IMG/VR virus record: IMGVR_UViG_3300021962_000044
Coordinates: 47,076-111,075 of that record
Reading direction: 5' to 3' (one strand)
Length of the DNA: 64,000 nt
Source of the DNA: a virus
The position numbers and the translations under genes were made by a program. Under the pieces are notes generated by a model, which did no database searches, was not told where the DNA came from, and saw only the letters and a list, made by a program, of their open reading frames with translations. Below are positions 12,239 through 49,998 of this stretch, in pieces (the stretch's first letter is position 1; the number at the start of each line of letters is the position of its first letter).

Positions 12239-12947
12239 TGTACCGGGTATAGATTATTACGATTACCGAGATAGTGAATATTATAATAAGTTTGCTTATC
12301 GGTTAAGATTTAAAATGCCCAGTATTAGGTATATCATCAATGAGACCAAAGTTGATGGTTTGATGAAAAGGTATAATGCTACTAGTGGTTGGCGAGTTAT
12401 TAGAGAAGAAGATAGACCAATAGTTACTGAAAATCTAGAAGCACTTAAACAGTTAATAGAGTTACGTAATAGTGTTAAAAAGAATGGTACAGCAACAGTT
12501 CGTTTAGAATGGAATCATGCATCTGTTTTTAGCAATGATTTATCTTTTTTGAAAAACATTGAAAACATCAAGCCTGAATTAGAATATGATTATACTCAGG
12601 TACAAACAAACAATTTTGTAGGTGTAAAATCATTTGTTAATGATCCTAAACATAAGTTTAGAGTATATTTGAAATCTAAGATAGTTAAGGGTGATTTAAT
12701 ACAACAACTTGATGATCTGTTAAAACGCACCCCTAGCTTGTATCCATGTAATTCATTAAAAAATTGGTTACTAGGTGCATTACTTACTACAAATCAACAT
12801 ACTTGGAGATACCGTTTTACTAGTCCTACACATTTCATTGATTATGATGATGAAAGTACATTAAGCTATCTAGCAATAATGTATGGAGAATATCTTGGAA
12901 AACGATATAAATTAGAAAAAAGAATAGAAAATTATGGAACCAATTAG
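12213..12947 (+). CDS. Hypothetical protein
   Basis: 244-aa ORF overlapping the end of clpA. Confidence 0.6.
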   Translation: MALLKSVTDVPGIDYYDYRDSEYYNKFAYRLRFKMPSIRYIINETKVDGLMKRYNATSGWRVIREEDRPIVTENLEALKQLIELRNSVKKNGTATVRLEWNHASVFSNDLSFLKNIENIKPELEYDYTQVQTNNFVGVKSFVNDPKHKFRVYLKSKIVKGDLIQQLDDLLKRTPSLYPCNSLKNWLLGALLTTNQHTWRYRFTSPTHFIDYDDESTLSYLAIMYGEYLGKRYKLEKRIENYGTN

Positions 12948-13347
12948 AAAATTTATTAATTTAGTTGAATCTGCACAGAGTGTTGAACAACTAGCACATA
13001 TAAGCGATAAAGCATTAGATGATGCTTATCATTATGGTCGTAGCACACCCGGAGCAAACTTTGGTTGGTTAGCTAATATTGAAAGTGCAAAAGCCGCTAA
13101 AAGATTGATTGATGCCGGTGAAACTGATATTGAAAAGATTAGTGATGCTATTCATGACGGCTGGAATATCACCGCAATGGCAGATTATAATAATAAATTA
13201 CAATTAGATAGTCCTACTCCTGATGAAAAGAAGGCTAAAAGAGCTAAATTAGCACAACAATCTTATAGTCAGTTGCCGGAAGAAGAAAAAGAAAAAGATC
13301 GGGTAGTTGCTAGGGCTTTATTAAACGCAATTACAGGTACTGCATAA
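12934..13347 (+). CDS. RyR-domain-like protein with putative capsid-targeting leader
   Basis: IHDGW...YSQLPEEEKEKDR matches the RyR-repeat signature; N-terminus MEPIRKFINLVE|S. Confidence 0.6.
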   Translation: MEPIRKFINLVESAQSVEQLAHISDKALDDAYHYGRSTPGANFGWLANIESAKAAKRLIDAGETDIEKISDAIHDGWNITAMADYNNKLQLDSPTPDEKKAKRAKLAQQSYSQLPEEEKEKDRVVARALLNAITGTA

Positions 13348-13383
13348 AAGTGATAAATACTCTAATAAAATGGAGTATTTACC

Positions 13384-13548
13384 ATGGCAAAGATTGTAAC
13401 AGAATCAATCGTAATCACTTTTAGTAAAATAGTAAAAGACAACGATTCGGGTACTAGTATCACTAGTCCTGACATCCAAGCGGCTTTAGAGCAAGTAGCC
13501 CAAGAATTAATTGGCGATAGTGTAGTTGTTGAGGTTGTAAAAGCATAA
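13384..13548 (+). CDS. Small hypothetical protein (54 aa, not in ORF track)
   Basis: MAKIVTESIVITFSKIVKD...VVEVVKA; GGAG SD, ATAAATA at 13353, TAATG overlap with the next gene. Confidence 0.65.
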   Translation: MAKIVTESIVITFSKIVKDNDSGTSITSPDIQAALEQVAQELIGDSVVVEVVKA

Positions 13549-13934
13549 TGAGCCAAACAACTACTCTTATACTATTGCCACAAACAGCATATGTTAATCC
13601 AGGCAATGGAGCACCATACACTGTTACTGGTAATAGCCAACCCGGCGCATCATACATTATCAGTCCTAGATCATTGCAAACAGTTAATATTAACTTGACA
13701 AATTGTACTGGTAATATTACTATTGAAGCTAGTTTAGCTACTACTCCTAGTAGTACAGATTGGTTTAAAGTATATGAATTAGAAGCTAACGCAAATGCCG
13801 CTAGTAATAGCGCACCACAAATAGCTAGCAATGCATCAGTTTACACAAATATTAATGGTAACTTTGTTTATATGAGAGCAAAGGTTGTAGATTTTCAAGG
13901 TGGATTGGTTAATTTTGTTAAGTTAAGTTATTGA
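13548..13934 (+). CDS. Putative virion structural beta-sandwich protein
   Basis: N/T/S-rich beta pattern (GNITIEASL...DWF...NGNFVYMRA). Confidence 0.55.
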   Translation: MSQTTTLILLPQTAYVNPGNGAPYTVTGNSQPGASYIISPRSLQTVNINLTNCTGNITIEASLATTPSSTDWFKVYELEANANAASNSAPQIASNASVYTNINGNFVYMRAKVVDFQGGLVNFVKLSY

Positions 13935-13935
13935 T

Positions 13936-15825
13936 ATGAGAAATATTGTCATTATGCCGGGAGGCTTTCATCCCTTTCATGCAGGTCATGCCGCATTATA
14001 TCAAAGTGCAGTAAAAGCATTTAATGATGCTGACGTATATGTAGCCGCAACAAATGACACAAAAACAAGACCTTTTCCTTTTTCTGTTAAAGAGAAGTTA
14101 GCAAAGCTTGCAGGTGTTGCAGATAAACACTTTGTACAAGTTAAAAGTCCCTTTCAACCAAAAGAAATAACCGATCACTATAATCCGGAAGAAGATGTAT
14201 TAATCTTTGTTCGTAGTGAAAAAGATAGAAATGAAAGTCCTAAGCCGGGTGGTACAAAGAAAGATGGTACTCCAGCATATTTTCAACCCTGGACAGGTAA
14301 GAATCTACAACCATTTGGTAAACAAGCATATATTGCTTATCTACCTACAGTAGAGTTTGGTCCAGGAATTAGTAGTGCAACAGAGATACGTAATGCATGG
14401 CCTAACTTAGATGACCGTCGTAAAACAGCAATGGTTATGAGTTTGTACCCGGTAACTCAAAAGAATCCTAAGCTTGCCGCTAATGTTGTTAAGATGTTAG
14501 ATATGGGTATGGGTAATGAGTTAGATGAGGGTATGGGTAAAGCATTGGGTACAGCCGCGTTAGCAGGTAGCCTAGCATTAGGTGGTTTATCTAGTATGGG
14601 TAAAACAGCAGTTACTAACTGGGATAAATTACCACAACAAATGAGTACTCAACAAGATAGTAAAGGTGGTGAAAAGATTATGTCTGTAACTGGTCCTAAC
14701 AATAAAGGTGAGTATCGTGTTAGAGTTACTACAGATAATGATGTACAAGAGTTTGTTACTAAAACTCCACCAAAGGCATTAAATGAATTTGCCCCACCGA
14801 GTAGTGACCGAGGTGACGGCGGAGATAGTAGAAGTCGTAGAATAAGAAAACTATTAGAAATTGCTATACAAGTAGCAAAAGAAAAAAATATCGATGAATT
14901 GGGTATGATTCATGGTATGAATATGATAGCAGGTGATGAATTTTTCAATACAGCAGTTGAAGGTATACTACCAGACATAACAGATAAAGAATATATGTTT
15001 GTGCTACAGAGTGCTTATAAAACAGTAAAGCAAGGTTTGGCAGAAGCAAAGAAAAAAAGAAAAAAGAAAAGTAAAAACCGTAGTCTTGGAAGATACTTCT
15101 TCCCGGGATATAGTTACTATGGCGGCGGTGGAGAATCTGGTGAGGGTGGAGGAGATGGTGGAAGTGAAGGTATGGCGGAAGGCTTCCCTCAACCAGGACC
15201 AAGTTCAGGTGCTCCAAAACAGTTCGGTGCTGATGCCCAAATACAAACTCGCCAAATGACGGTAAAAGATATTATATCATCTATACCCGGTGTGCCTTAC
15301 TATAACAATGTAGTCGATGATTGGGACGCTAAAGATTATAGTTGGGGCGTTACTAAAAAAGTTATAGAGTATGCTACTTACTTGAAGGATCATCCAGAAA
15401 GTTTAGCAAAGTTGCCACCGGCAATAGTATTAAACGGTAAGTTTGAAGATGGCGCCCATAGAGTATCTGCCATATGGTTGCTACAACAAAGAATGGATCC
15501 TAAAAATCCATTGTGGAAAAATGTTAAATTAAATGTTCAATTTGTTAAGCAAGGTATGACGGAAGGCGAAGAAATTACTGAAGGACCTTTTGTTCAACGT
15601 CTTGGACGTCCTAATAAAGTTAATATCTATGTGAGACATACTACAGGCAAACCCTCTTTGCTTATTGCAACTGATATTCCTTATTCAATATATGATAAGT
15701 TTATTGCAAAGGCTATGCAAAAATATCCACAATTTAGGCAAACAGACTTTTCATTTAAATCTGCTGATAAACTTAAGGAAGAAACTAAATTGTCCGAAAG
15801 TGCTGATTACTTAGACGAAAATTAA
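13936..15825 (+). CDS. Modular polyprotein: HxGH cytidylyltransferase-like domain + ParB/Srx-like module + unknown modules
   Basis: PGGFHPFHAGH and ISSATEIR; LPPAIVLNGKFEDGAHR (ParB-N); module joints ELDE|G, ALNE|F, GLAE|A, GMAE|G, GMTE|G. Confidence 0.7.
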   Translation: MRNIVIMPGGFHPFHAGHAALYQSAVKAFNDADVYVAATNDTKTRPFPFSVKEKLAKLAGVADKHFVQVKSPFQPKEITDHYNPEEDVLIFVRSEKDRNESPKPGGTKKDGTPAYFQPWTGKNLQPFGKQAYIAYLPTVEFGPGISSATEIRNAWPNLDDRRKTAMVMSLYPVTQKNPKLAANVVKMLDMGMGNELDEGMGKALGTAALAGSLALGGLSSMGKTAVTNWDKLPQQMSTQQDSKGGEKIMSVTGPNNKGEYRVRVTTDNDVQEFVTKTPPKALNEFAPPSSDRGDGGDSRSRRIRKLLEIAIQVAKEKNIDELGMIHGMNMIAGDEFFNTAVEGILPDITDKEYMFVLQSAYKTVKQGLAEAKKKRKKKSKNRSLGRYFFPGYSYYGGGGESGEGGGDGGSEGMAEGFPQPGPSSGAPKQFGADAQIQTRQMTVKDIISSIPGVPYYNNVVDDWDAKDYSWGVTKKVIEYATYLKDHPESLAKLPPAIVLNGKFEDGAHRVSAIWLLQQRMDPKNPLWKNVKLNVQFVKQGMTEGEEITEGPFVQRLGRPNKVNIYVRHTTGKPSLLIATDIPYSIYDKFIAKAMQKYPQFRQTDFSFKSADKLKEETKLSESADYLDEN

Positions 15826-15882
15826 AAATATTTTGACCCCCTTGTTTTGATGTAAATATTACTATCTTAACAAGAGGATCAA

Positions 15883-16872
15883 ATGGCAACTAAGAAAACA
15901 ATCGAAAAGGTTACTGCTAAACCAGCAAAAGCCGCAACTAAAACTCCAGCAAAAGCACCGGTTAAAGCACCCGCTAAAGCTTCTAAAACAGCTAAAACAG
16001 TTCCTGTAGAAAAACTACAAGAAATTGCTGATCAGGCTGCTAAAGAACCAGCTCAGGCAGCGGGCCCGGGTCAAGTTCAAGTTAACGTAGATTTTCTACG
16101 TACAACTAAAGTACATATTGCTATGCCATGTTATGGTGGTATGCTAACAGAATCAACATTCATGTCATTCATCAAGTGGGCAAATACAGCTCGTCAACTT
16201 GGTATTGATTGGACATTAGAAACAATGGTTAATGAATCACTCATTAGCCGAGCAAGAAATACATTAACTGCTAAGTTTTTGGATATGCCAGACGCAACAC
16301 ATTTATTCTTTGTTGATGCTGACATTGGTTGGGAGCCATGGCATCTACTAGTTCTACTGAACCGTGACGTTGATGTTATCGGTGGACTATATCCAATGAA
16401 GACAATGCCAATTAAATGGGTTGTTAATGGATTTGAAGGTGCTGAAGAAGGTACTGATGGATTACAAGAAGTATCTAAAGCAGGTACAGGTTTCTTGTTG
16501 ATGAAGAAACATGTGTTTGAAAAGATGAAGACTCATCCTGCAGTTAAACAGTATAAGAACGACATTGGATTAGATCCAAAGTTTGACCAGCACTTAAAAA
16601 CGTATTTTGATACAGCGGTTCGTCAGAATCGTTACTATAGTGAAGATTGGACATTCTGTGAAAACTGGCGTGATATGGGCGGCCGCATCTGGGTTGACAA
16701 ACGTGTATTGTTACGTCACTCAGGTAGTTATGTATTCTGTATGGAAAATCAGGAACATTTGATGAAAACGATCGGCCCTATGTATGTTGAAGAACAGGCT
16801 AAAAAGGCACAACCGGCAGCTCCGGCAGTTCTCCCGGATGCAACTGGTGTAGTATCAATAGCTACAACTTAA
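15883..16872 (+). CDS. GT-A-fold glycosyltransferase-like protein with Ala/Lys/Pro-rich N-terminus
   Basis: SLISRARN, HLFFVDADIGW (DxD), AGTGFLL, SEDWTFC, L.HSG. Confidence 0.7.
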   Translation: MATKKTIEKVTAKPAKAATKTPAKAPVKAPAKASKTAKTVPVEKLQEIADQAAKEPAQAAGPGQVQVNVDFLRTTKVHIAMPCYGGMLTESTFMSFIKWANTARQLGIDWTLETMVNESLISRARNTLTAKFLDMPDATHLFFVDADIGWEPWHLLVLLNRDVDVIGGLYPMKTMPIKWVVNGFEGAEEGTDGLQEVSKAGTGFLLMKKHVFEKMKTHPAVKQYKNDIGLDPKFDQHLKTYFDTAVRQNRYYSEDWTFCENWRDMGGRIWVDKRVLLRHSGSYVFCMENQEHLMKTIGPMYVEEQAKKAQPAAPAVLPDATGVVSIATT

Positions 16873-16875
16873 TAC

Positions 16876-16900
16876 AAAGCCCCGAAAGGGGCTTTTATCT
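16876..16900 (+). terminator. Rho-independent terminator
   Basis: AAAGCCCC-GAAA-GGGGCTTT plus T-rich tail. Confidence 0.85.
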
Positions 16901-16917
16901 TTTTAGATAAATACTCT

Positions 16918-18612
16918 ATGGACTTAAAAGAATTACATTCATTCAAAATGTCAGATGCTGTGACATTTCACGATAGCCTCAATCCTAAACTGTTTCGTGG
17001 ACAACATCTACAACCTGAAGTAGAATTACAATTAAAAACCATAGCACAAGACTTTTTACAAGAGATAGGTATACACGACTTAGATGTACGTGATATCACT
17101 ATTTCTGGAAGTAATGCCGCCTATAGTTACACAGACCATAGTGATTTAGATTTACATATTTTAGTCAATATGAAGGATTTACCGGATGATGACATTTACC
17201 ATGAATTCTTCAAAGCTAAAAAAGATTTATACAATGACTCACATGATATTACTATCAACGGGATTCCAGTAGAATTATACATACAAGATGCGGCAGAACC
17301 TGTAACTAGTTTAGGTGAATATAGTGTTAAAGATAATAAATGGTTGCGAATGCCCGCAAAGCGTAGAGCAAACTTTGACCAAACAGCTACTAAGTCAAAA
17401 TATATAAAACTATTAGATATTATTGATACAACATTACAATCTGATAAAATAAGTAAAGTTAATAAAGTATTGAAAAAGATTAAACAATATCGTCAAGCTG
17501 GATTAGATAAAGGTGGTGAGTTTAGCCCTGAAAATCTAGCATATAAAGCATTACGTAGCCGTGGTTACATTACAAAGTTATATGACTTAAGAGACAGATT
17601 ACATAGTAAGCATTTGAGTTTAAATAACATGTATGCTAATGTAGATGAAGATTATGATCCAAATGGTATTCCTCCTGGACCAGAATTTAAGCCAACCATG
17701 CCAGCCGGTACTGTTAAAGTAGATGTAAGTGATACATATGATTGGTATAAGTTGGGACAACATATCAGTAATCTTGATGGATTGGGTAAACATGACTTTG
17801 GGCAAGGTCCTCCAAGTACTATAATGGCATTTGGTAGTGAAGAGGCAGAACATAAGTATATTGATGCACTAAAGAAAACTGGTCTTACCACAACTGATAT
17901 TGATCCGTTAGATCCTAATCAACCTAAAGGTATGAAGCGTCAAAAGACTGACCCTACATATAATGTAAATGAAGCTGTTACTGATAATTATCTATATCAC
18001 GCTACTATGCCTGCAGGCATGATGCGTATATTGCGTACAGGTATAATTAAAGCAACTGATAGACCGCAACCATCTACTAAATCAAAAACACAATACCCTA
18101 CAATTAGTACAACTAGATCAAAACAATATGCAGAATCAAACGATTTTGTAGATTTCTTAAACTTAACCAACGACGGTAATGCAGTCATATTAGTATTTGA
18201 TCGTGCCGCAGTCGCTAATCATTACAAAATGTTTAGTACAAGTCAAGGTACACAGACAGTAGGTGACGAATATGAAGAAGTAATTGTTGCCCCCAAAGGA
18301 GCAATGCCGATCAAAGGAACCTTAAAGGGCTTCTATTTCAACCCTAGAAGCACAGAAGAAATAGAAGGATATAAAGATATACCTTGGTTCAACGAGTTAT
18401 TGACCAGTCCATATTATATAGGACCAAAACAAGGTGTGGCGGAAGCATCAGGTTATATCCCTAGTGAAAAACAGAAGAATGACCCAAGATTTAGTACAGC
18501 ATTAACAGTAGATATTAAGCCCGACAGTATCAAAAAGAACGCAAAAGCATTCTATTGGAATACTAGTAGAGCAGGTATTCCTCCAACAGCAAAGCCATCA
18601 GGCAAAATCTAA
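16918..18612 (+). CDS. Modular polyprotein: Pol-beta-family nucleotidyltransferase + ADP-ribosyltransferase-like module
   Basis: GSNAAYSYTDHSDLDLH and VELYIQD (NTase); YLYHAT...ISTTRS...EYEEVI (ART-fold pattern); joints NVDE|D, NVNE|A, GVAE|A. Confidence 0.7.
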   Translation: MDLKELHSFKMSDAVTFHDSLNPKLFRGQHLQPEVELQLKTIAQDFLQEIGIHDLDVRDITISGSNAAYSYTDHSDLDLHILVNMKDLPDDDIYHEFFKAKKDLYNDSHDITINGIPVELYIQDAAEPVTSLGEYSVKDNKWLRMPAKRRANFDQTATKSKYIKLLDIIDTTLQSDKISKVNKVLKKIKQYRQAGLDKGGEFSPENLAYKALRSRGYITKLYDLRDRLHSKHLSLNNMYANVDEDYDPNGIPPGPEFKPTMPAGTVKVDVSDTYDWYKLGQHISNLDGLGKHDFGQGPPSTIMAFGSEEAEHKYIDALKKTGLTTTDIDPLDPNQPKGMKRQKTDPTYNVNEAVTDNYLYHATMPAGMMRILRTGIIKATDRPQPSTKSKTQYPTISTTRSKQYAESNDFVDFLNLTNDGNAVILVFDRAAVANHYKMFSTSQGTQTVGDEYEEVIVAPKGAMPIKGTLKGFYFNPRSTEEIEGYKDIPWFNELLTSPYYIGPKQGVAEASGYIPSEKQKNDPRFSTALTVDIKPDSIKKNAKAFYWNTSRAGIPPTAKPSGKI

Positions 18613-18667
18613 TAAGTTTCCATATTATGGTATTTTGATAAATACACTATTAGTATGGAAATCCGTT

Positions 18668-19951
18668 ATGAAAATCAAACAAATCACTGAAACTACAACA
18701 GCAGGTGCAATAGCTACTGTAAATTCACCATTAGGTGGCACACAAAGTAGAGGAAATCCTAGCATATATGGTGGCAAGAAAGTAGGAACTCTATTCAAGG
18801 GTAAAAAGACTAAAGCCCCATATGCTAATAGCATCAATGAAAGTGCTGAACTTAGTGAAGCACATTTAGAAGAAGATGATGTTATTGTTGTTCCAGGACA
18901 GGGTCGTAGTCGTAAAAACGGATTTGTTCCACATGGCCAAAGTCGTGTAGACCACGAAGTTGAAATGGCACGTAGTGATTTATTCAGTGCCGCAAAGAAT
19001 GCTCAACAAGTCTTTTCAATGATTAAAGATGTTAGTGAAGATGAAGGTCTTGACGGTTGGGTACAAGAAAAGATTATTAAAGCCAATGATTATCTAAACA
19101 CTATACGTGAATACCTAGAAGGTAAGCAAGTTCAAGGTGTAACGGAAAACAATCAAAGAGTTGATTCACTTGTCACAGACTCATTAAAAATAATGCGTGG
19201 TCCAGAAGTAAATGATGCAGTCAAAGCAATAAAGACTGTGCTAGGAGAAAGAGAATACAATAGCCGTCGCGGTTATTATAGTTTCTATGTTCGACAACTA
19301 ATGGATATGCATGGTCAAGAAGGTTTAACGGAAGGCTTACACCCAATGATTATTGATGATGTTAAAAAATTAGCAACGTTGAGTCCTACTGACAGATATA
19401 GTGCTTATTCTAATATTCGTGGTTACTTCAAGGCCGACCCAGCGTTGAGCAAGATGGCGTCAGATTTAATGGGAGGATACTACGAAGCAGACATGCTTAG
19501 AGGCAAGTATAAAACAGCCGAAGCAAAAGCCAAGTATGCTGAATTAGAACCAATGCATCAGGCATTTATTAAACAATCACTAGGTCAAGAGCAAGGTGTA
19601 ACGGAAGGCTCCAGAAACGCATATTTGAAGCACAACAATTTAATTGATTTAGAAAAACCACTTGCCGGATTAAAGGACGAGTTTAATAAGTTTTTGCGAA
19701 CCCACGATCCTGAAGAAAAACAAAAATTCCAACAAGGTATCAAACAAAGAATAAAGACACGCCCAATGGCGGGACCTAAAGGCGTATTACCAGAGCAAGG
19801 TATATCAGAAGGCGCTAAAGTTGACCGTATGGTTAAGCACATTGAAAAGTCAGAAGAAAAATCTGGCAAGAGTAAAAAAGAAGCTGAAAACATTGCTTGG
19901 GCAACTGCTAACAAACGTGGCATGTTAAATAACAAGAATAAGAAAGCGTAA
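18668..19951 (+). CDS. Modular polyprotein (putative internal head protein) with C-terminal ChaB-like motif
   Basis: Start MKIKQITE at 18668 after ATAAATA (18638); joints QGVTE, EGLTE, QGVTE, QGISE; C-terminal AENIAWATANK. Confidence 0.65.
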   Translation: MKIKQITETTTAGAIATVNSPLGGTQSRGNPSIYGGKKVGTLFKGKKTKAPYANSINESAELSEAHLEEDDVIVVPGQGRSRKNGFVPHGQSRVDHEVEMARSDLFSAAKNAQQVFSMIKDVSEDEGLDGWVQEKIIKANDYLNTIREYLEGKQVQGVTENNQRVDSLVTDSLKIMRGPEVNDAVKAIKTVLGEREYNSRRGYYSFYVRQLMDMHGQEGLTEGLHPMIIDDVKKLATLSPTDRYSAYSNIRGYFKADPALSKMASDLMGGYYEADMLRGKYKTAEAKAKYAELEPMHQAFIKQSLGQEQGVTEGSRNAYLKHNNLIDLEKPLAGLKDEFNKFLRTHDPEEKQKFQQGIKQRIKTRPMAGPKGVLPEQGISEGAKVDRMVKHIEKSEEKSGKSKKEAENIAWATANKRGMLNNKNKKA

Positions 19952-19952
19952 T

Positions 19953-22900
19953 ATGAGCAATATTCTTAAAGGTATAATAAACGAAGTTAGTCCACATAAC
20001 TATGATAGTGATTGGGATTATCAAGATGCAGTAGCACGTAGTGGTAAATCACGTTCTAGCTATCGTTCACAAGAAGATGATACTTTTGACTCTGATGTTG
20101 CATATTCCAGAAAGATGTATCAATTGGGACAACAACAAAAGGCTGCAAAAGAAAAAGCACAACGTGATAGTGACCATGATAGATTGGCAAGTGGTACAAA
20201 TGAAGATATAACTGAAGCCTCTAATCCTTATGAACCAGTAATGATTCAAGGTTATGATAAGTGGCTTAAGTTAGTTAGTATTCCTAATGTTGATAGACAT
20301 GCTTATAAAAGTGATATAACAGCAGTTACTTCCTTAGGTGATGTGATTGGTGAATTTAATACAGATAAAGATTTAGGATACGTTATTAAAAAATATGCTA
20401 AAGGTGTTAGTGAGAGTTTAGATGATCCATGGGGAGATCAAGGTAACTTTGCAGGTGATAAGCCAGTTAATCTTGGTGGTGTCTCTATTAAGAATATACA
20501 AGTGGGTGATACTGTTAAGTATTTTGGACAACCTTCAAAAGTAGTTGCTATGAGTAAGGATCGTAAATATTCTCGCATCACAATTTCTAAAGGCATGGGT
20601 ACTGTTACACAAGATGTATTAACACGTGACTTACAACAATTAGGCCAGGGCAAAGCAATAGAAGAAAATGATAATATTCAAACTAGAATGCGAATGGATG
20701 ATTATTATAAATTGGCAGATGCTATTCAGGAAAAACTTAGACAAGCAATTAAACTAGGTGATAACGAACTTGTACATAAATTATCCAAAGAACGTGCTGA
20801 CTTAGATGCACGTGTTAAAAAATATGGATTGATACCAGAATCACAACTAGATGAAATCTCTAATGAAAAGTTAGCACAATACAAAACAGCTGCCGCATTA
20901 GATGCAGGCAAAGCTGATAAAGAAGGTGATTATAAACGTGGCGATAAACGTTTCAGTGGTATTGTTAAAGCAACTAAGAAACAGTTTGCTAATGATACAA
21001 AGAAATCTGGTATCAGTCAAGGTATAAATGAATTTGCCCCCATTAAACCCCCTACTGCCGGGGCATTTGGTGGTAATAAAGATTACGGACAACCAAATAG
21101 TTCACGCTATATAGGTGGTAACAAGTTTGTAGTAGGTACTACTAACAATTATGTATTGACCGCTACAATAGACAAATGGGGATTAGAATGGGATGAGGAT
21201 GACGAGATATGGTTCTTAGACAGTCCCGGTGCCGCACATATTGCTGATGCTAGTGAAGGTGAAATAGAACTACCTCCACCCCGTGAACAAAGAAATCAAA
21301 TACATGATTTAGTAACTGATTATCTTAATGAAAGAAATTCTGCTGATTTACAAAAGGTAGCCGCATATTATGGTCACAGTAATGATGGCGAAATGGCAAC
21401 AAATGAAAGTTCAGAAGCACCTAGATTTAACAGTAAACAAGAAGTTATTAATCACTTTGTTAAAAACGGCAAAAGTGCGGCAGCAGGTGCAGCGGCATGG
21501 GAACGTGGTTATAGAGGTTCATCTAAGAAACCAATAGAGTTAAAAAAACCACCACAAAGAAGTTACCATGATGAACTAGATGATAAACGTTATTCAAATA
21601 CATTTGAAAACTTAGGTGATCAATTGAAATCTAATTCATTAAACGCACTAGTTCAAGCCAAATTAGCTATAGAGCAACAACGTCAAGCTGAAATAGAAGC
21701 TTGGAAAAGAGATTTTGAAAAGAATACAGTACAAAAAGCACAACAAGGTTTACGTAGAGAATTTGAACCAACTCCAGTTGCACAGCCTGGCGAGAAGCAT
21801 TCTGTATTGAAAGCTAGGTTAGCACAATTAAATAATGCTATACAGAAGCAAGAACTAGTAGATAAGTTAGTTGATAGATTAGAGCGTAAGGGTTTAATGA
21901 CTCCTGCAATGCAAAACGATACTGATACAAGAATGCATGTTAAGTATGGTGCAAAAGATAACTATCAATCTTTAAATAAAAAATTAGACAATGCTATTCA
22001 AATGTTACAGAATAGATTAAATATCCGTAAAATTTCTGGATTAAAAGAAGGTCATGATGAGCGTGATGAATATGATAATCCTAGAATGGGTAGAGATTAC
22101 GGCAAAGGCAATCTATTTGTAGATCCTGGTTCAAATGAATTTAAAAAAGAAGTACATATAGGTAGCAATGACGGCGAACGTGGCAGACCAAAAAATCTAA
22201 AGGGTGTTTCAAAAGTATTACCAGCTGATGCATTTGGCCGTACTACAGGTAAGATACCAGATAGTGCAAGACCAACATCAAAAGAAGATCCTTTTAAAGA
22301 CGTTGATGAAGACCTAGACGAAAATCTACATAAGTGGTTTCAAGAAAAGTGGGTACGATTTGGACCTGATGGTAAGATCCGTGGTGATTGCGCTAGAGGT
22401 GATGATAGTGAAGGTAAACCAAAATGCTTACCACAAAGTAAAGCACAGAATTTAGGCAAAGCAGGTCGTGCTAGTGCGGCAAGTCGTAAGCGTAGAGAAG
22501 ATCCTAATCCAGAACGCAGTGGTAAGGCTATCAATGTTGCTACTAAGAAAAAGAGTAACGAAGGTGTGGCGGAAGACCAACTTGATGAATTAAGTTGCTG
22601 GTCTGGTTATCATAGAGTCGCTGGCACCAAAGCAGGCTTTCCAGGTAGTTGTGCTAAAAATAAAACAAACGAAGAAGCAGTTGATGAAGCTGATATGAAC
22701 CGTAGAGGATTCTTAAAAGGTATGGGTGCGGCGGCTGTGGCAGGTAGCGCATTAGTTAATCCTATTGTTGCTAAAGCGCAAGATTCAACATCTGCTAGAG
22801 GAATAACAAAATCTGATTTACAAAAAAAATTCCCTAATAGTTTAGATATTAAAGCGACAGGAACAAGACCACCCTCTATTATAACGGATTTAGGTTTATC

Positions 22901-24290: not shown

Positions 24291-24336
24291 TGAAAGACTA
24301 TGATTTTTATTGGAATTTAAAAGGATACCCTAGAGG

Positions 24337-24936
24337 CTAATCAAAAATTATTCTCCAACCCTTATAAGAGGTCTCGTTTTTTCGGATGAGACCTCTTAAT
24401 CCTTTAGTACTAATAGAGTATTTTATAGCAAATTCATATGAGGTACTGTATACTCTTTCTAGAGTATTGATGTTCTCAAAGCAATAGACTGTTTTATTAA
24501 ATCTAGTATTATTAGTTCCGGCTTTGGATCGTTTTGTGAATTTTGAAGCATATTCATTTGATATTAATCTGCCGCGCACCCAACCTTCTGGAATATCTCC
24601 ACGAATTTTCTTATTAATAATACCATTGTTAATCCAAATAGTGCCATACATTGGATTATTCTCACCGGTATTCGATAATTTTGCGAGATAAGATTTTTCT
24701 TCAGGAGAGACTTTCATTCTCTGAGACATGATTAAACATGCTTTGTAATCCCCTTGTGATTTATGTATTTCGTAATGTTCTTTGATGGAAACACATAGTA
24801 AATTTGATATTTCATTATTATTGTGATTTCCATCAATATGATGAATTTCATAACTGCGACCATCTTCATCTTTAGGAATGGGCCCTATAAATGTTTCGTA
24901 AATCTTACGATGATCCGTGGTTGAATAAATACTCAT
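24337..24936 (-). mobile_element. Free-standing HNH homing endonuclease with NUMOD-type DNA-binding motifs
   Basis: YEIHHIDGNHNNNEISNL..VS..EH..IH; GENNPMYG and WINNG. Inserted antisense in a late operon. Start at 24936 has an AAGGAG SD. Confidence 0.88.
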
Positions 24937-25036
24937 GCTGGTGCTCCTTTTTAGCATTAGAGTAGTTGGGCCTGCCAGCCGCGAACTACACTTTTATTTA
25001 TCATAAGTTTAGATAAATATATGAATAAGGATTAAT

Positions 25037-25477
25037 ATGTTAGTAGAAAACTTAAAAGTGTTATTGGCTAGTACTCAAGTGTTTGCGATTAAAACGCAAC
25101 AATTCCATTGGTGCGTAGAGGGGACCAACTTCCCGCAATATCACGAATTCTTTAATACGTTATATGGAGATGTGAGTGCTACTATTGATCCTATTGCTGA
25201 ATATATTAGAATACTAGGTCATTACACTCCGGGTAGTTTAACACGTTATGCAGAACTAAGTATCATTCAAGACCAAATTAAAATTCCACGTGCTGAGTTA
25301 ATGTTTGCAGAATCATTGCAAGATTGTGAAGCAATGGGTCAACTTGTTGTTGCTATGTTTGATCAGGCAGCTAGTGAGAATCAGCATGGTATCGAAAACT
25401 ATATGGCTGAACTACAAGATTTGTATGGCAAGAAAGCATGGTTTATCCGTTCAACATTAAAAAGAGAACGTGAGTGA
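25037..25477 (+). CDS. dps: Dps/ferritin-like DNA-protection protein
   Basis: KTQQFHWCVEG.NF..YHEFF..LY, D.IAEYIR.LG and K.AWF. Confidence 0.88.
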   Translation: MLVENLKVLLASTQVFAIKTQQFHWCVEGTNFPQYHEFFNTLYGDVSATIDPIAEYIRILGHYTPGSLTRYAELSIIQDQIKIPRAELMFAESLQDCEAMGQLVVAMFDQAASENQHGIENYMAELQDLYGKKAWFIRSTLKRERE

Positions 25478-26771: not shown

Positions 26772-26773
26772 AA

Positions 26774-27211: not shown

Positions 27212-27212
27212 C

Positions 27213-27297
27213 ACACCTTAGGACCGGTACTTGTTACCGTGGTGTAGGCGGCTTCTGCCTTAAGCAATCCAATTCGCTACTGGACCTTATAAGTGAG
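27213..27297 (+). ncRNA. Candidate small structured RNA (unassigned)
   Basis: GC-richer intergenic island with nested stems ACACC/GGTGT, CGGTA/TACCG and AGGCGG/CTGCCT; no U-tract. Confidence 0.3.
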
Positions 27298-27310
27298 CAT
27301 AAATACTAAT

Positions 27311-29397: not shown

Positions 29398-29452
29398 ACA
29401 ACAATTTACCATAATCATTGCTAATCAAATCATTCTATGTTATAATAGCTAA

Positions 29453-33077: not shown

Positions 33078-33155
33078 ATTGGTGTTGCTATTCGCAATAT
33101 ATTCCGTTATAATACACATTATAACTACCTAAATAGTTTAAACAAAGGAAAAAAC

Positions 33156-41600: not shown

Positions 41601-41606
41601 AACACA

Positions 41607-42937: not shown

Positions 42938-42946
42938 GATAGTTCC

Positions 42947-43180: not shown

Positions 43181-43184
43181 ATAT

Positions 43185-44701: not shown

Positions 44702-45528
44702 AAAAGATTTTAATTACTGGTTGTTCAGGATACATAGGTTCACATCTATCTAAGATGTTAGCTAATGATTATGAAGTTTATGGTTTAGATATTGATGAAC
44801 CACAGGCACCACTTAATGAGTTTTATCGCTGTGATATCAATAGACAATTTGCTATCCCAGGTGATATAGAATATGATTGTGTAATTCATTTAGCGGCATT
44901 AGTACGTGTGGGTGAGAGTGAACAAATACCTATCAAGTACTATATCACTAACTTAAATGGTACAATGAATGTAGTTAATAAAATAAAGACAAAGAACTTT
45001 ATCTTTGCTAGTACAGGCGCCGCACAAGATTGTTCTAGTGCTTATGGTATCAGCAAGCGAGCCGCTGAAGATGTAGTTAGAGAATATTGTACAAAACATA
45101 AACAACAAGATTATACTATCTTTAGATTCTATAACGTTATCGGAAGTGATGGTTATGAACCAACCAACCCTGATGGTTTAATGTACAAACTAATGGAAGC
45201 ACGTGATACAGGCGTATTTACTATATATGGTAATGATTATGATGTATCACCTGACGGTACTTGTGTACGTGACTATGTTCATGTTAATGAAATATGTGAT
45301 GCAATAAAACAAGCTATTGAGAAGCCTAGTAATAGTGTTGAATGTCTAGGACATGGTGTAGGATATACGGTACAAGATATTGTTGATTTATTTCAAAAAG
45401 TAAATAATTGTGACTTTACAGTAAAATACGGCACTAGAAGAAAGGGTGATTTACCTAGTAGTGTACTAGCCAATGTGTCACCTTATATGCGTAATCTTTA
45501 CTCTATGGAAGAGTTATTGAAAGTTTAA
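44698..45528 (+). CDS. NAD-dependent NDP-sugar epimerase (GalE-like)
   Basis: ITGCSGYIGSH, HLAA, YGISK (YxxxK), RFYNV.G, DGTCVRDYVHV, RRKGD. Confidence 0.9.
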   Translation: MKKILITGCSGYIGSHLSKMLANDYEVYGLDIDEPQAPLNEFYRCDINRQFAIPGDIEYDCVIHLAALVRVGESEQIPIKYYITNLNGTMNVVNKIKTKNFIFASTGAAQDCSSAYGISKRAAEDVVREYCTKHKQQDYTIFRFYNVIGSDGYEPTNPDGLMYKLMEARDTGVFTIYGNDYDVSPDGTCVRDYVHVNEICDAIKQAIEKPSNSVECLGHGVGYTVQDIVDLFQKVNNCDFTVKYGTRRKGDLPSSVLANVSPYMRNLYSMEELLKV

Positions 45529-47051
45529 GCTAAATGTGTCATTAAGGTATTCATTTGTTGAACACCACCTTTTGATAACTGAAATCCTTTTTGGTCTGCA
45601 CGTTTGATTCGTTGGTCATAACTAGGATGTGAGCTATTGGGAAGTTTAGTTATACTATTATAAAAGTCGTAATCAGATTGTTTTTGGTGCAAGAACTTAA
45701 ACATCTCAACTTTGTTGTAACCTAAAGCCCTACATAACTTAATAGCAAAGTCGTCAGCATCCATTTCTTCCCGACGTGCTTTCCCGGGATCAGGCTGAAA
45801 ACCGTGTCCTAGGGCAATGTGTCCCAGTTCATGTGCAATAGCAAATGCCAGTGTAGAATCAGGAGCATCCCAAAACACAGTTAGGTCAAGACTGACATTA
45901 CGAGTATCAGCATTTCCTTGAACCCACTGGTCATTCGACGTAACAAGAACTTTTGTCCCCTGCAGTCTTTGTGCCCATTCTGGTCCGGCGGCTCGCATTA
46001 ACTTACCCAGCATACCATTACTGCGTTGTTGCAGTTGTTCAAATCTAGGCATCCAAACGTCAGGTTGTTTTTTTATAGTTTCTAAATCTTGATATTCACC
46101 TGCTTTAGCTAAACCAGTAGCACCTAATGCGGCAGCACCTGCTGCACCTTTAAGCAGGTCTCTACGACTAATAGCTTCAGCTAATTCATTGTTCGTTTTT
46201 ACAATAGGTGGAACCCAGTTGTATAGTTCTCTTGGACCGCCGGATTCATTGTGGTAATAATTTGCTTTAAACGGACCATCAAATTTAATAACGTTTTGAA
46301 CTTCTTTTGGATTACCACCTGTTAATCTCTTAAATGCATCTATTGCTTTTTCTTTTGTCAAACCAGCCTTATTAAACTCACCGGTATCACCAATAGGCAA
46401 GATTAAGCCATCAGGTGTAGCACTCCATAATGTATATCCATCTGGATTGTCTCTCCTTGCTACGATTTGAACTTCATTTGGCTTATAGTAATGTTTACTA
46501 TTCAATGGTGGTTTAGCTAACTTACGTGAGAACGTTCCCTTATTAGTAGGATCATCTTTCATAGCAGTTAATTCTAAGCCACTATCACTAATCAATTTTA
46601 ATAGACCTTCTGGAACTTTATTCATTAACTCTTTGCGTATCTGAATGCCCACAACATATGGTTTCTTAACAGGGATCCCTATACCTCTCGGATGATAGAT
46701 ACGTTCTTCTGTTTCTTGTTTATACATTGGGTTACTAGCTGTTGGACCCGTACCATCAGGTTGATTATAGAATTGCATATAAGAGAATGGCATTACTTTG
46801 AATCCAGCTTGACGTAATGCATTTCTATCTAGTACAAGTTGAATACTGCCGCCGCCATACGGGAATCTATAATATTGATTTCTACTTGCGCTGATTACTG
46901 GTATCTCCCAACCACCTTCTTCATCTGTATCAGATAAGTGTGGTTGTATCACACCTTTTCTGAGTATGTTCCAGATTTGATTAGGTTGTGATACACTATG
47001 ATAAACATAGTCTCCGCCTACGGCTTCTGATAAAAATTCACTTGCTCTCAT
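45525..47051 (-). CDS. Modular polyprotein: ART-like module + Tat signal + M48 metallopeptidase
   Basis: Leader MRASEFLSE|A; YVYHS...ISASR...ETEERI; LAE|AISRRDLLKG..AKA|G; AIAHELGH, EMDAD, SHPS...RI. Confidence 0.75.
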   Translation of the reverse strand: MRASEFLSEAVGGDYVYHSVSQPNQIWNILRKGVIQPHLSDTDEEGGWEIPVISASRNQYYRFPYGGGSIQLVLDRNALRQAGFKVMPFSYMQFYNQPDGTGPTASNPMYKQETEERIYHPRGIGIPVKKPYVVGIQIRKELMNKVPEGLLKLISDSGLELTAMKDDPTNKGTFSRKLAKPPLNSKHYYKPNEVQIVARRDNPDGYTLWSATPDGLILPIGDTGEFNKAGLTKEKAIDAFKRLTGGNPKEVQNVIKFDGPFKANYYHNESGGPRELYNWVPPIVKTNNELAEAISRRDLLKGAAGAAALGATGLAKAGEYQDLETIKKQPDVWMPRFEQLQQRSNGMLGKLMRAAGPEWAQRLQGTKVLVTSNDQWVQGNADTRNVSLDLTVFWDAPDSTLAFAIAHELGHIALGHGFQPDPGKARREEMDADDFAIKLCRALGYNKVEMFKFLHQKQSDYDFYNSITKLPNSSHPSYDQRIKRADQKGFQLSKGGVQQMNTLMTHLA

Positions 47052-48940
47052 TAGTGTTTCAATAATAGTGTTGACAATACATCTTGTCTATTAGCACTGA
47101 TATCACCCTCACCCGGGGCAATAATAACATTCCATTTCTTAATGTTATTCTTTTGAGGAGTAGCCATCATCTCATTGTAATCAATGATAGTATCACGTTT
47201 TAAGTTATATTGTTGTGCTAATCTGTCTTTTAATTCGTCTAATGCTGCCGCATCTTTTGGTTGCCATGCACCATCAGCAGTCTTATCTAACTTACCGGTC
47301 TCATCTTTCTTTAATAAGTCATAAAATAACTTACTAGGAACAATACGACTATTTTTTGTAACATCTAATTGCGGGTCTTGTTGTTTAACTTGTTTTTCTT
47401 GACTAGTACTTGCACCTTCACTCCAGTTAACAATAAAGTTACTTGGCTTTTGACCTAATGCCGCATCTGCTATTTTTGTATAAGCATAGAACTTAACATC
47501 AGGATGAGAGGCAGCTAACTTAAATGCTAAATCCATATATTCTGGGCTAAAGAAATCACCAGCATCATGCCAACGAATAGTTAGATTGTAACCACCTTTT
47601 TGTGCTGATTTTTCTTCTTTTGTAATTTCATTACTTAATTGATTGAAGAAACCATCTGGATCATTCAATAAGAAAGTTAGTATTCTTCCGTCGCTTAACC
47701 ATGGCCCTTCAAACTGAACCTTACCGCCCTTCATAGCAAAACAATCCACTTTACATGAGCCGGCACCTGGACATGTATTAACTACTATAAGTTCGTTTGT
47801 ACCTTCATCTAATGCGATACCAACTAATGCGGCAAAGCCAATGTTATAAAATTGTTCTAGTTCACCATTAGAATGTTTCATCTTCTCATTTTGTTTAAGA
47901 AGTTTCTTTGGGCGAACACCTAATGCTGTTTTGATTTGGTCTGTATCGTAGCGTTTACCTTCTTCATTGTAGTATTTGACTACACTTGAGCGATGTATGT
48001 AAGGTAGTTTATATTTGTCTGTTTTACCCTTTTCACGATTACGAATTCTATCTAAGTAATCTTCTAGTTCTTGACCTTTTAGTTCACGTGTTTGTGCTGG
48101 GAGTTTTGTTGCTTCATTTACACCTTGTTTTTTTATTAATGAAATAATATTACTAATACCATTTAATGAAATATCCCTCTCGGATGTAGTTCCAAATTTA
48201 CCAGTTGGGTTTTGCCATGTAAATTTCACTGTTAAAACATTTGAATTAGCAATTTTATCAAGGGCATGGGTTAAATCTACTCTACCCCTATTAGAAATAG
48301 TTACAGGAATGGTTTTAATAGTATTGGTATTATTATTCAACATATACTTGAATTCAGTATTTGGCTGAAAATTATAGTCATGTCCTAACTTAAATGTTAA
48401 CCGTAAACCACCATAATTTATCCAATGAAGAAAAAGGTCATTAGTATTATTAGATGCCATAATTTCTTTATCTTTTTTATCAAATTTTGATGTTCTAATA
48501 GTTACGCTCCATTCACCAATATTTTCAGTTGTAGTATTTGATAAAGCTTCACCGGCTGCGCCCGTTGCGGCTGCCGCGCCCATACCTTTTAAGAACCCTC
48601 TACGGCTAATGTCAGCTTCATTCACACCGTGTTGTTTATGTTGTGTAGATGGTTTACCACGTTTATCACTATCAGGGAACATTATAGACATACTTTTACC
48701 ATAAGCCTGATCAATTGTTTTAGGATCTATTTTAGATTTATCAGTTCTAGCCTTATGTGTAAACTGTGCTAATTGTTCAGGGGACATTTTATCTAATTCT
48801 TCGGAAGACATTTCATCTATTTTTTCTTCCGGTTCATCACCTGATTGAGCAAGGAATTGATCCATACTCATAACTTTGATGCCACCTACAGCACCCGGTA
48901 ATTTGGGTGTCGCACCCTCAAATAATTCTGTAAAGTTCAT
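47051..48940 (-). CDS. Modular polyprotein: Tat-signal module + gp88-like Fe-S/radical-SAM-like module
   Basis: Leader MNFTELFE|G; VNE|ADISRRGFLKG; TCPGAGSCKVDCFA, IRWHDAGDF and FYAYTK (phage gene-88 family pattern). Confidence 0.7.
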   Translation of the reverse strand: MNFTELFEGATPKLPGAVGGIKVMSMDQFLAQSGDEPEEKIDEMSSEELDKMSPEQLAQFTHKARTDKSKIDPKTIDQAYGKSMSIMFPDSDKRGKPSTQHKQHGVNEADISRRGFLKGMGAAAATGAAGEALSNTTTENIGEWSVTIRTSKFDKKDKEIMASNNTNDLFLHWINYGGLRLTFKLGHDYNFQPNTEFKYMLNNNTNTIKTIPVTISNRGRVDLTHALDKIANSNVLTVKFTWQNPTGKFGTTSERDISLNGISNIISLIKKQGVNEATKLPAQTRELKGQELEDYLDRIRNREKGKTDKYKLPYIHRSSVVKYYNEEGKRYDTDQIKTALGVRPKKLLKQNEKMKHSNGELEQFYNIGFAALVGIALDEGTNELIVVNTCPGAGSCKVDCFAMKGGKVQFEGPWLSDGRILTFLLNDPDGFFNQLSNEITKEEKSAQKGGYNLTIRWHDAGDFFSPEYMDLAFKLAASHPDVKFYAYTKIADAALGQKPSNFIVNWSEGASTSQEKQVKQQDPQLDVTKNSRIVPSKLFYDLLKKDETGKLDKTADGAWQPKDAAALDELKDRLAQQYNLKRDTIIDYNEMMATPQKNNIKKWNVIIAPGEGDISANRQDVLSTLLLKH

Positions 48941-49998
48941 AGTATTTCTTTTCTAGCCTTTGCTACCATTTGTTCGGCAAGCATTAGTAATTCTTCCATT
49001 TGCTCAATAGATTCGCAGTTCCATCTACGCAAACTTTTGTTAATGTTACTATTTGGATCTCTTGCTGTCTTGGCACTTGTTCTGCTTTTCTTCATGCCCT
49101 TCATTCTAGCACAGAATGATTTACGGCGTTTAGCAGCCTTACTGCCTTTTTTAAGTTTGCTAGGTTTAGTAGTAACCGCTGTTTGAATCTTGCTACCAGG
49201 ATGACTACGGCGATAACTCTTTACAGACTTTTTACTCATTCCACCTACACGTTTGTTATTGTGTTTTGACCAATTCTCGCCTTCCGCTACACTTTCATCT
49301 AACTCATTCCCAGCGAACTCAATAGCATCATAAGGTCCCCAAGGCTTACCAGTACGGCCATCAATGTCATTTCCAGCATCATCATTGTCACCGTATTCAT
49401 AGTGTTCTTTACTTTGAATTTCTACTCCATCAAACTCAGCATTATATCCGATAAAGTATTTTCTAACTTTGCCGTCAGGACAATGAATACCGCGTTCTAG
49501 CATATTTTCAATAGCGTCTTGAACTTTCATTCTATGTTCTAATGGATTTTTTCCTTGTTTGACCAGGTCCCCCAACATCTCCCATTCCATATTGTACCAT
49601 GCTCTAGCCAATGTTTTTAAATAGTTGCTATCACCCTCGCCACCAGTACTAGGTGCAAGTTCATTTAATGATTCGTTTTGTTGACCTAATGGAATATTAG
49701 CAATATCGTTTACAGTAATATTAACTAAATTAGTTGTACCATTTGCTAGACGGGCAAAGTGCCCCTGATTGTGTAAATTCATCATTGCATAATAAAGATA
49801 GTTTGGGTCAATAACATCTGTACGTACAACTTTAACACCAATCCTTGAAGGATCAAATTCTTTAACAGGCTTGCCCACTGTTTTATCACTACCCTTACGT
49901 ACTAACCAAAAGTCAGCGTCTGGCATATTAGTAGCAATTTTTGCTAGGTCTTTCAGTCTGGTACTGACATTCTCTGATATAATTTCGGTAAATCTCAT
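48937..49998 (-). CDS. Modular polyprotein: HsdS-TRD-like module + unknown module + basic C-terminal module
   Basis: Leader MRFTEIISE|N; joints SLNE|L and LDESVAE|G; C-terminal RRKSFCARM...DPNS.INKSLRRWNC. Confidence 0.65.
   Translation of the reverse strand: MRFTEIISENVSTRLKDLAKIATNMPDADFWLVRKGSDKTVGKPVKEFDPSRIGVKVVRTDVIDPNYLYYAMMNLHNQGHFARLANGTTNLVNITVNDIANIPLGQQNESLNELAPSTGGEGDSNYLKTLARAWYNMEWEMLGDLVKQGKNPLEHRMKVQDAIENMLERGIHCPDGKVRKYFIGYNAEFDGVEIQSKEHYEYGDNDDAGNDIDGRTGKPWGPYDAIEFAGNELDESVAEGENWSKHNNKRVGGMSKKSVKSYRRSHPGSKIQTAVTTKPSKLKKGSKAAKRRKSFCARMKGMKKSRTSAKTARDPNSNINKSLRRWNCESIEQMEELLMLAEQMVAKARKEIL

Follow-up and report, generated by a model that had tools for sequence, protein, structure and literature searches.

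Candidate cargo polyproteins built from exchangeable cassettes, with T4-type leaders and repeated Glu joints, in an uncultured jumbo phage

The DNA analyzed here (the window) is a stretch of 64,000 nucleotides (nt), bases 47076–111075 of the 111-kb IMG/VR viral contig IMGVR_UViG_3300021962_000044. It contains eleven genes, at window positions 12934–28450 and 45525–49998, that encode strings of small cassettes; genes are named below by their first window position. The cassettes are separated by short joints that end in Glu, and nine of the proteins begin with a short leader that also ends in Glu. This architecture and the logic of the sites are solid at the level of sequence comparison. Because the leaders and joints are like the capsid-targeting tag and cut site of phage T4, the chains are probably packed, chopped and delivered with the DNA. 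That they are cassette-built cargo polyproteins, cut and delivered via the capsid, is the reading we favor, with some reserve. Cutting by the prohead protease is a likely part of it, and packaging and ejection, though plausible, are somewhat less so. A preliminary description of this DNA had proposed such a delivered set. Comparison with relatives upholds the cassette polyproteins, the leaders like the T4 capsid-targeting sequence (CTS) and the joints that follow the rule of the T4 protease gp21. The HsdS, ParB and ART labels given to some modules were not confirmed.

The source is an uncultured freshwater giant phage, a T4-related jumbo phage. Its family-B DNA polymerase has 42–48% identity to those of Rak2-like phages, Atu_ph07 and other jumbo myoviruses. 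The completeness of the contig by CheckV is 32%, and tail sheath, tube and fibre genes make up its upstream part. A megablast search with 18 kb against cultured phages found no match at the DNA level. The relative G001 (348.7 kb, 100% complete) is collinear with the contig, with 83% nt identity across 75% of it. The polyprotein genes turn over rapidly: they share only 50% of their bases with G001, and the median for the other genes is 100%. The proteins were compared with those of 80 related viral loci and with 120 database homologues.

In the related loci, the joints are the exact points at which cassettes have been inserted, lost or transferred. The 18668 protein has 1704 database homologues. 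All of the 16 that were compared have a fixed N-module and all but two have a fixed C-module (G-A-K-V-D-R-M...). Their N-module starts with MKIKQITE in most cases and ends at QVQGVTE, and the middle consists of variable, unrelated cassettes, each ending in QG[VLMI]AE/G (here and below the slash stands behind the Glu). In the 16918 family, residues 1–246 and 507–564 are kept and the middle is swapped. In the 27311 family, residues 1–69 and 252–379 are kept; a sigma-70 region-4 cassette is found in some members only, and most relatives, forms of about 190 amino acids (aa), are without the 70–251 cassette. The 'ART-like' cassette of 16918 recurs in a 19953-family protein. Swappable cassettes are thus present in all polyprotein families across the 80 loci, as expected from the earlier view of these proteins as strings of unrelated domains. 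Single chains combine two or more such domains: an HxGH nucleotidyltransferase (NTase) with cassettes, an NTase with an H/R/D/E module, sigma region 4 with HExxH, and a Tat signal with an M48 peptidase. Among the fetched relatives there are 155 distinct chains with at least two strict joints, which gives 597 inter-joint segments with a median length of 91 aa. Single-linkage clustering of these segments gave a single giant component, the looser joints having been left unsplit, and only the counts and lengths of the segments are usable.

The joint has the consensus Q-G-V-A-E/G, in which the invariant features are an aliphatic residue at P3 and Glu at P1. The motif [QEKH]G[LIVM][ATSN]E is found 13 times in the candidate proteins and 0 times in the other 29,913 residues (Fisher p = 3e-11), and G[LIVM]xE is 3.7-fold enriched in the candidates (p = 9e-5). 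A fourteenth joint, ESVAE/G, is in the 48937 protein (49282–49296, minus strand). Homology breakpoints with relatives lie at a median of 4 residues from the Glu of an [LIVMA]xE motif, compared with 18 for random positions, and 41% are within 3 residues of such a Glu, compared with 11.5% of random positions. In 13936 the breakpoints are at aa 195–200, 281, 370 and 537–547; its strict joints are QGLAE (15031–15045), EGMAE (15166–15180) and QGMTE (15550–15564), all on the plus strand, and its looser joints are ELDE at aa 198 and ALNE at aa 284.

Structure models place the joints in segments of low confidence. The AlphaFold2 model of 18668 displays small helical modules with a mean pLDDT of 58. 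Of its five internal stretches with pLDDT below 50, four contain or adjoin the joint residues E160, E222, E313 and E381 (joints at 19133–19147, 19319–19333, 19592–19606 and 19796–19810, plus strand). A search with this model against viral structures by Foldseek returned only an uncharacterised homologue. In the model of 16918 a pLDDT trough at residues 234–263 includes the joint NVDE; past residue 343 the pLDDT is 20–40 and the model is uninformative. The breakpoint distances and the troughs of the 18668 model agree with the earlier proposal that domain borders fall on x-x-E motifs.

The rule for the joint holds at the protein level. Distinct contexts were tallied for four cassette starts that could be anchored: Glu occupies P1 in 78/78, 24/28, 15/15 and 51/51 of them, and V, I, M or L occupies P3 in 71/78, 24/28, 15/15 and 51/51, respectively; P2, P4 and P5 vary. 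The sequences ahead of the 16918-family C-module in relatives are NVGE, SISE, NVWE, NVEE, SMSE, DVAE, SMAE and GVAE, i.e., the protein rule persists where the DNA consensus of the joint is lost. The persistence of P1 Glu and an aliphatic P3 while P2, P4 and P5 drift points to selection on the protein. As judged from these alignments, the rule is that of T4 gp21, aliphatic-x-Glu.

A protease of the gp21 type is encoded in relatives. Peptidase_S77 is found in a T4-type head module in three complete or near-complete relatives, the collinear G001 among them, and the order of the G001 head genes is the T4 order. It begins with the portal gene (PF07230, 1.6e-103) and a small leader-bearing open reading frame (ORF) that starts with MHLFEMFTPAIE. 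These are followed by an acidic core protein that contains EGMAE, the S77 (gp21-type) protease (1e-27), a scaffold protein that starts with MLDAIKPLLE and the gp23-type capsid protein. The G001 capsid protein has the sequence LLAE/SSAG about 22 residues ahead of a conserved VIRRVMP, and its T4 counterpart is FLTE/AEIGG ahead of MVRRAIP. By analogy to T4, LLAE/S is the predicted maturation site of the capsid protein.

The nine leaders listed in the preliminary description were all found at the positions and on the strands given there. On the plus strand these are MEPIRKFINLVE (12934–12969), MKIKQITE (18668–18691), MSNILKGIINE (19953–19985), MRAIDFLIE (25474–25500), MRATEFILNE (25968–25997) and MRAIELYE (27311–27334), and on the minus strand MRASEFLSE (45525 protein, 47025–47051), MNFTELFE (47051 protein, 48917–48940) and MRFTEIISE (48937 protein, 49972–49998). 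The start codon of 25474 is GTG, and the starts of 18668, 25968 and 27311 are internal ATGs within slightly longer ORFs. A short start that ends in Glu is not distinctive by itself: a hydrophobic-x-Glu within the first 13 residues is found in 21/144 contig genes and 54/394 G001 genes, approximately the chance level. A sharper pattern does stand out. M-[RKN]-[AFIL]-x-[EDQ]-[FILM]-x(1-3)-E, a pattern defined post hoc from data already seen, matches the N-termini of 7 of 144 genes and none of the 689 internal Met positions (p = 4e-6), with the same outcome in G001. Six of the nine leaders have M-[RN]-[AF]-x-[ED]-[FIL]..E in common, which is enriched at N-termini. The typical leader is 8–12 residues long.

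T4 internal proteins IPI–III and Alt reportedly carry a capsid-targeting sequence and are processed by gp21, as Mullaney and Black and, in 1994, Repoila et al. are said to have found. The core E-F-[IL]-x-E of the leaders is the core of the T4 IPII/IPIII leader MKTYQEFIAE, and the leaders also resemble the start of T4 Alt, MELITELFDE (both read from the T4 record). In T4, a change of Glu to Asp in the CTS blocks processing. These ten CTS residues suffice for capsid targeting, processing depends on residues 8 and 10, and leaders like the CTS are found ahead of diverse proteins in relatives of T4 (PMC9026906).

Leaders and joints replace each other in related genes. The gene 12934 is free-standing in the window and in four relatives, and residues 16–135 of its product form an internal, joint-led cassette in polyproteins of four other related loci, L007, L029, L069 and L048. 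In more than 10 relatives, 16918-family polyproteins have internal cassettes that are similar to the body of the 25474 protein. Nine relatives encode the C-terminal half of the 45525 protein (Tat signal and M48 peptidase) in a gene of its own, where it starts MRANEFISE/AISRRDLLKG. The N-terminal half is likewise a separate gene in relatives, with the start MRANEFITE/AVGGDY, and the two halves are fused in the window through NNELAE/AISRR. The same 'ART-like' module is present behind the leader in 45525 and behind the joint NVNE in 16918. As far as these rearrangements reveal, leader Glu and joint Glu are interchangeable.

Three internal Tat signals score above the TIGR01409 cut-off of 16.7 bits. 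They are in 19953 (22689–22784, plus strand, aa 913; 23.4 bits), 47051 (48539–48616, minus strand, aa 109; 26.4 bits) and 45525 (46098–46178, minus strand, aa 292; 25.2 bits), each directly behind an x-x-Glu; in 19953 this is AVDE, in 47051 the joint HGVNE (48617–48631, minus strand) and in 45525 the joint ELAE at aa 291. In the families as a whole, 21 of 22 Tat-like signals start 1–4 residues past a hydrophobic-x-Glu. Such placement would make little sense unless the Glu marked a new N-terminus. From their positions, the signals would be N-terminal only after cutting at the preceding Glu.

The M48 module of 45525 is behind a Tat signal and is therefore probably periplasmic cargo. This bears on a different source of the cutting, in which embedded HExxH metallopeptidase modules (autoprocessing) or a host protease, and not the prohead protease, would act at the joints. 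HExxH domains form the C-terminus of two of the eleven proteins, and autoprocessing has been proposed for MPTase (metallopeptidase) domains by Iyer et al. (PMC5512222). However, nine of the eleven have no peptidase module, the P1-Glu/P3-aliphatic rule is the gp21 signature, and a module exported to the periplasm would be the M48 peptidase itself. Such processing is very improbable.

The joint is also a DNA repeat. It is an 18-nt element, CAAGGTGTGGCGGAAGGC, and the conservation is confined to those 18 nt. Its codons are rare ones: the Val codon is GTG in 72% of joints compared with a genome background of 9%, the Ala codon GCG in 85% compared with 6%, and the Gly codon GGC in 64% compared with 14%. 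The octamer CGGAAGGC is found five times in the window, where 0.5 are expected, and always in frame within polyprotein genes. The earlier account had recognized the protein motif of the joint and overlooked this conservation in rare codons. From the residue and codon counts together, the joint is constrained at both the protein and the DNA level, and cassettes are probably also shuffled by recombination in frame at this element. The AAGGTG in the joint was considered as an internal Shine-Dalgarno sequence for restart and ruled out, as there is no start codon at the right distance.

Conservation of this type would also be expected if the proteins worked uncut as multidomain 'polyvalent' proteins, with the joint serving as a flexible linker and an 18-nt patch of homology. 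The synonymous-site conservation in rare codons, sharply confined to 18 nt, and the extensive shuffling of cassettes fit such a patch, and the polyvalent proteins of Iyer et al. 2017 are a precedent. A linker would not account for P1 and P3, which are kept as Glu and as an aliphatic residue, respectively, where P2, P4 and P5 and the consensus of the DNA have diverged. The internal Tat signals 1–4 residues past a Glu need a free N-terminus, the N-terminal leaders that end in the same x-E replace joints, and the motif matches the predicted maturation site of the capsid protein. Uncut function is thus improbable, though less so than autoprocessing.

An indirect experimental link to virions is provided by T4-like cyanophages. 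These were matched in a tblastn search with the 1445-aa chain of 19953, mainly at the P-SSM2 gene PSSM2_123, which is between gp15 and gp16 and is a member of cluster T4-GC119 of Sullivan et al. 2010. Residues 235–328 of the 48937 protein have 58% identity to PSSM2_123 (1e-24) with the joints aligned, ESVAE/G with EFVNE/G. PSSM2_123 is also homologous to 19953 residues 789–895 and 1145–1237, and the E values for the three cassettes range from 1e-24 to 2e-15. Mass spectrometry of purified S-SM1 virions detected T4-GC119, annotated as 'Structural protein', with 13 peptide counts (PMC3037559 Suppl. Table 8), and its gene length among cyanophages is 276 to 2985 nt (PMC3037559). It is like the genes described here in that V-x-E/G is found between its small basic modules. 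It differs in being a single smaller cyanophage gene for which no polyprotein processing was described and whose P-SSM2 copy starts without a CTS-type leader. The cytidylyltransferase T4-GC190 has 25 counts in S-SM1 virions (PMC3037559), and its P-SSM2 copy (L129:1144–2415) starts with MKSFSQFLTE, a close match to the capsid-targeting sequence of T4. T4-GC190 was rejected as a homologue of 13936, the similarity being marginal (E value 0.006 over the HxGH motif), and is treated as an analogue.

The virion data can be set against another possibility, that cutting at the Glu joints takes place in the cytoplasm of the producer cell and the chains are not packaged. The joints would then be a strategy for polyprotein expression, and the Tat-tagged pieces would be exported in the same infection, e.g., for superinfection exclusion or lysis control. 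Tat export from the producer cell requires no refolding after ejection, and a 2026 preprint reports phage proteases that act on a cytosolic host enzyme (PMC12991175). Against this, the leaders match the T4 capsid-targeting tag, which in T4 is sufficient for packaging, the homologous T4-GC119 cassettes are found in purified virions, and T4 gp21 is known to be activated inside proheads (PMC9026906). Cytoplasmic cutting is unlikely overall, yet of the alternatives it is the one to take most seriously.

Several observations count against delivery through the capsid. The polyprotein genes do not adjoin the head genes and are far from them, which would also suit cytoplasmic cutting; T4 IP and alt genes are likewise distant. 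The 13936 protein has no leader, and 16918 starts with MDLKE, perhaps a leader of 5 residues; this too is in favor of cytoplasmic cutting. A gp21-type protease and a gp23-type capsid gene were not found on the 32%-complete contig, although the protease had been expected outside the window and an S77 gene is present in the collinear G001. A tblastn search with the 18668, 16918 and 13936 proteins revealed no cultured close relative. The density of plain [LIVM]xE is 16.3 per 1000 aa in the candidates and 16.1 in other genes, so that the enrichment once suggested for this loose motif is absent and is seen with the extended motif only. The synonymous-site bias of the joint implies a constraint at the DNA or RNA level, for which a protease site alone is insufficient. 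Finally, a leader directly ahead of a Tat motif could act as a long n-region.

In the delivery model we favor, the eleven genes, which encode chains of small, unrelated, independently folding modules with a median of about 90 aa, would be transcribed late. The leader would take the chain into the prohead core, where the S77 prohead protease would cut past each Glu, removing the leader and freeing some 40 separate products. These would include a sigma region-4 fragment, nucleotidyltransferases, Zn-peptidases and small basic proteins. The products would remain inside the head until they passed into the next host together with the DNA. Three of the products would then have a Tat signal at their new N-terminus, which would direct their export to the periplasm.

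A wider proposal is that of a combinatorial delivered-effector system, in which the 18-nt element would be a recombination joint and at the same time the code for a head-protease cut site. This is tentative. If true, jumbo phages would shuffle hundreds of mini-protein cassettes among genes and genomes; by means of a portable leader the cassettes would be loaded as chains, then freed within the capsid and injected, and Tat signals that only the cut exposes would re-address some of the products to the periplasm of the next host. If cutting and packaging are borne out, the set of head-delivered proteins of T4 would be the minimal form of a larger, modular, fast-shuffling arsenal of abundant freshwater and marine jumbo phages, whose scale is indicated by the more than 1700 database homologues of one cassette family alone. 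Small proteins for host takeover and anti-defence could be found there in abundance, and the leader with QGVAE/G joints would be a natural design rule for loading phage heads with multiple cargoes. A joint that is both recombination patch and protease site would be an unusual case of two-level selection on one sequence. To our knowledge, this would also be the first case of phage-delivered proteins re-routed to the periplasm through Tat.

The closest known system is that of the T4 internal proteins. The likenesses are the 8–12-residue leader with an E-F-[IL]-x-E core and a Glu end; the gp21-family protease and T4 head-gene order, as found in the close relative G001; cargo genes scattered off the head genes; hypervariable cargo behind a conserved leader; and putative late-type promoter motifs like TATAAATA. 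Polymorphic cargo behind a conserved leader is known for the T4 internal proteins themselves (PMC3012670). The putative cargo described here differs in being chained, with up to about 13 cassettes per gene and a predicted cut site that recurs within the chain. The joint follows an extended consensus, QGVAE/G, and is an 18-nt rare-codon repeat, some cassettes have Tat signals, and the predicted cargo repertoire is several-fold larger and known from sequence alone. Chained cassettes with a repeated cut site, the 18-nt joint and the internal Tat signals appear to be new relative to the T4 CTS system. In the literature, no description was found of chained cassettes with a repeated gp21-type site, of an 18-nt joint or of internal Tat signals.

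Two other systems are comparable in part. In phages of the phiKZ type, packaged proteins are cut at the motif S/A/G-x-E. The head and inner-body proteins of phiKZ and SPN3US are similar in that many are packaged, cut after Glu, at several sites and by the prohead protease, and ejected (PMC5694885, PMC7411985, PMC10052503). They belong to another phage lineage, and cassette shuffling and Tat signals are not described in the cited papers. P3 is V, I, M or L in 86–100% of the anchored joints, which do not conform to the phiKZ motif. Polyvalent proteins (Iyer, Burroughs, Anand, de Souza and Aravind 2017, PMC5512222) similarly have many unrelated effector-type domains per phage polypeptide, including Zn-peptidase and nucleotidyltransferase modules, and have been proposed to travel with the DNA and perhaps to undergo processing. 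The processing proposed is MPTase autoprocessing, with no repeated cut site and no CTS-type leader (PMC5512222), whereas the proteins described here have a repeated site of the prohead-protease type between small cassettes, most of them without a known domain. Of the signature domains of polyvalent proteins (MPTase, DdrB-like ParB, PolyVal ART and others), HExxH/M48 was seen; the ParB-like and ART-like labels fare as described next.

The module labels assigned earlier from sequence were confirmed by Pfam or fold matches for sigma region 4, peptidase and NTase. They were not for the ParB-like, HsdS-like and 'ART-like' cassettes, which have no Pfam match at E values up to 5. For the ART-like module, a search of PDB profiles gave only Tpt1 (E about 1), and an Atlas lead to DarT/PARP, at 0.82, is below the noise level. 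In an alignment of this module, however, a His, an Asp and a Glu are invariant and an Arg is nearly so.

The individual genes are as follows. Gene 12934 (12934–13347, plus strand, 137 aa) has a single cassette, for which the Pfam search gave only a weak match to an RyR domain. Gene 13936 (13936–15825, plus strand, 629 aa) encodes a cytidylyltransferase-like HxGH domain (PF01467, 7.8e-6) followed by cassettes. Gene 16918 (16918–18612, plus strand, 564 aa) matches phrog_36119 (3e-47). Its modules are a Pol-beta-type NTase (1–245), a cassette (246–352), the 'ART-like' cassette with the conserved H/R/D/E (353–510) and a C-module; the joints between them are NVDE at aa 245, NVNE at aa 352 and QGVAE (18430–18444, plus strand). 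The model of 16918 has a Pol-beta-type nucleotidyltransferase domain, with weak Foldseek matches to CD-NTases and aminoglycoside nucleotidyltransferases (ANT).

Gene 18668 (18668–19951, plus strand) encodes a polyprotein of 427 aa, and gene 19953 (19953–24290, plus strand) is the longest with 1445 aa; the latter has strict joints at 20400–20414, 21018–21032 and 22560–22574 (plus strand) and about 9 looser [LIV]xE borders. The leader-bearing gene 25474 (25474–25971, plus strand) encodes 165 aa, and 25968 (25968–26771, plus strand, 267 aa) has two cassettes with a border, EQVTE, at aa 194. Gene 27311 (27311–28450, plus strand, 379 aa) has an N-module that extends to KLDE at aa 69, the optional sigma-70 region-4 cassette at aa 70–257 (PF04545, 3.2e-17) and a C-terminal HExxH. 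On the minus strand, gene 45525 (45525–47051, 508 aa) has the 'ART-like' module and, past the joint and Tat signal, the M48-type Zn-peptidase (PF01435, 1.1e-7). Gene 47051 (47051–48940, minus strand, 629 aa) encodes a GP88 domain (PF17338, 2.5e-27) and has a second joint, QGVNE (48113–48127, minus strand). Gene 48937 (48937–49998, minus strand, 353 aa) ends in a basic DUF6321 cassette (PF19846, 7.9e-11).

The motif ATAAATA, which resembles the T4 late promoter, is rare, with 51 copies on both strands of the contig, yet 26 of them are within 60 nt upstream of a gene start. Genes preceded by it include those for sheath, tube and fibre, and also 16918, 18668, 27311 and 25037. The copy ahead of 16918 (16907–16913, plus strand) is 11 nt from the start of the gene, and further copies are at 18638–18644, 27299–27305 and 25013–25019. 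The last of these belongs to a ferritin/Dps-like gene (25037–25477; PF00210, 1.8e-15) that heads an operon continuing into 25474 and 25968. A second class of motifs, of the TGTTATAAT type (extended -10, sigma-70-like), is distinct from the ATAAATA class. It is found at 9120–9136, 29436–29452, 33110–33130 and 50000–50035 and is located ahead of, among others, the DnaJ-like gene, 29453 and 33156. The two classes suggest an early/late split that can be read from the promoter motifs.

The genes near the polyprotein region include others of interest. Upstream of it, at 9137–12238, a ClpA/ClpB-type double-AAA ATPase (PF07724, 8e-55) is behind a gene that is DnaJ-like by eye. Between 19953 and the ferritin operon, a gene on the opposite strand (24337–24957, minus strand) has by eye the look of an HNH-type homing endonuclease (HHIDGNH). 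A staphylococcal-nuclease homologue (PF00565, 26774–27211), with a Sec-type signal peptide seen by eye, is between two polyprotein genes. Positions 28462–29397 encode a 311-aa protein that has about six 50-aa repeats (GDKAIFGYG ... TNLVSNTGVV..DT.GVGTAR) and no Pfam match.

Upstream of the window, the contig genes 15636 (MKLTEF...) and 16358 (MRLFEL...) have leader-like starts, and 15636 matches a PHROG annotated as 'virion structural protein'. A highly charged, low-complexity protein of 899 aa is encoded next to the tail genes (contig positions 39894–42593; L003:3894–6590). It starts with MDFKSLLSQLDQLNE and has five G[LIVM]xE motifs, and from these features it may represent another packaged chain.

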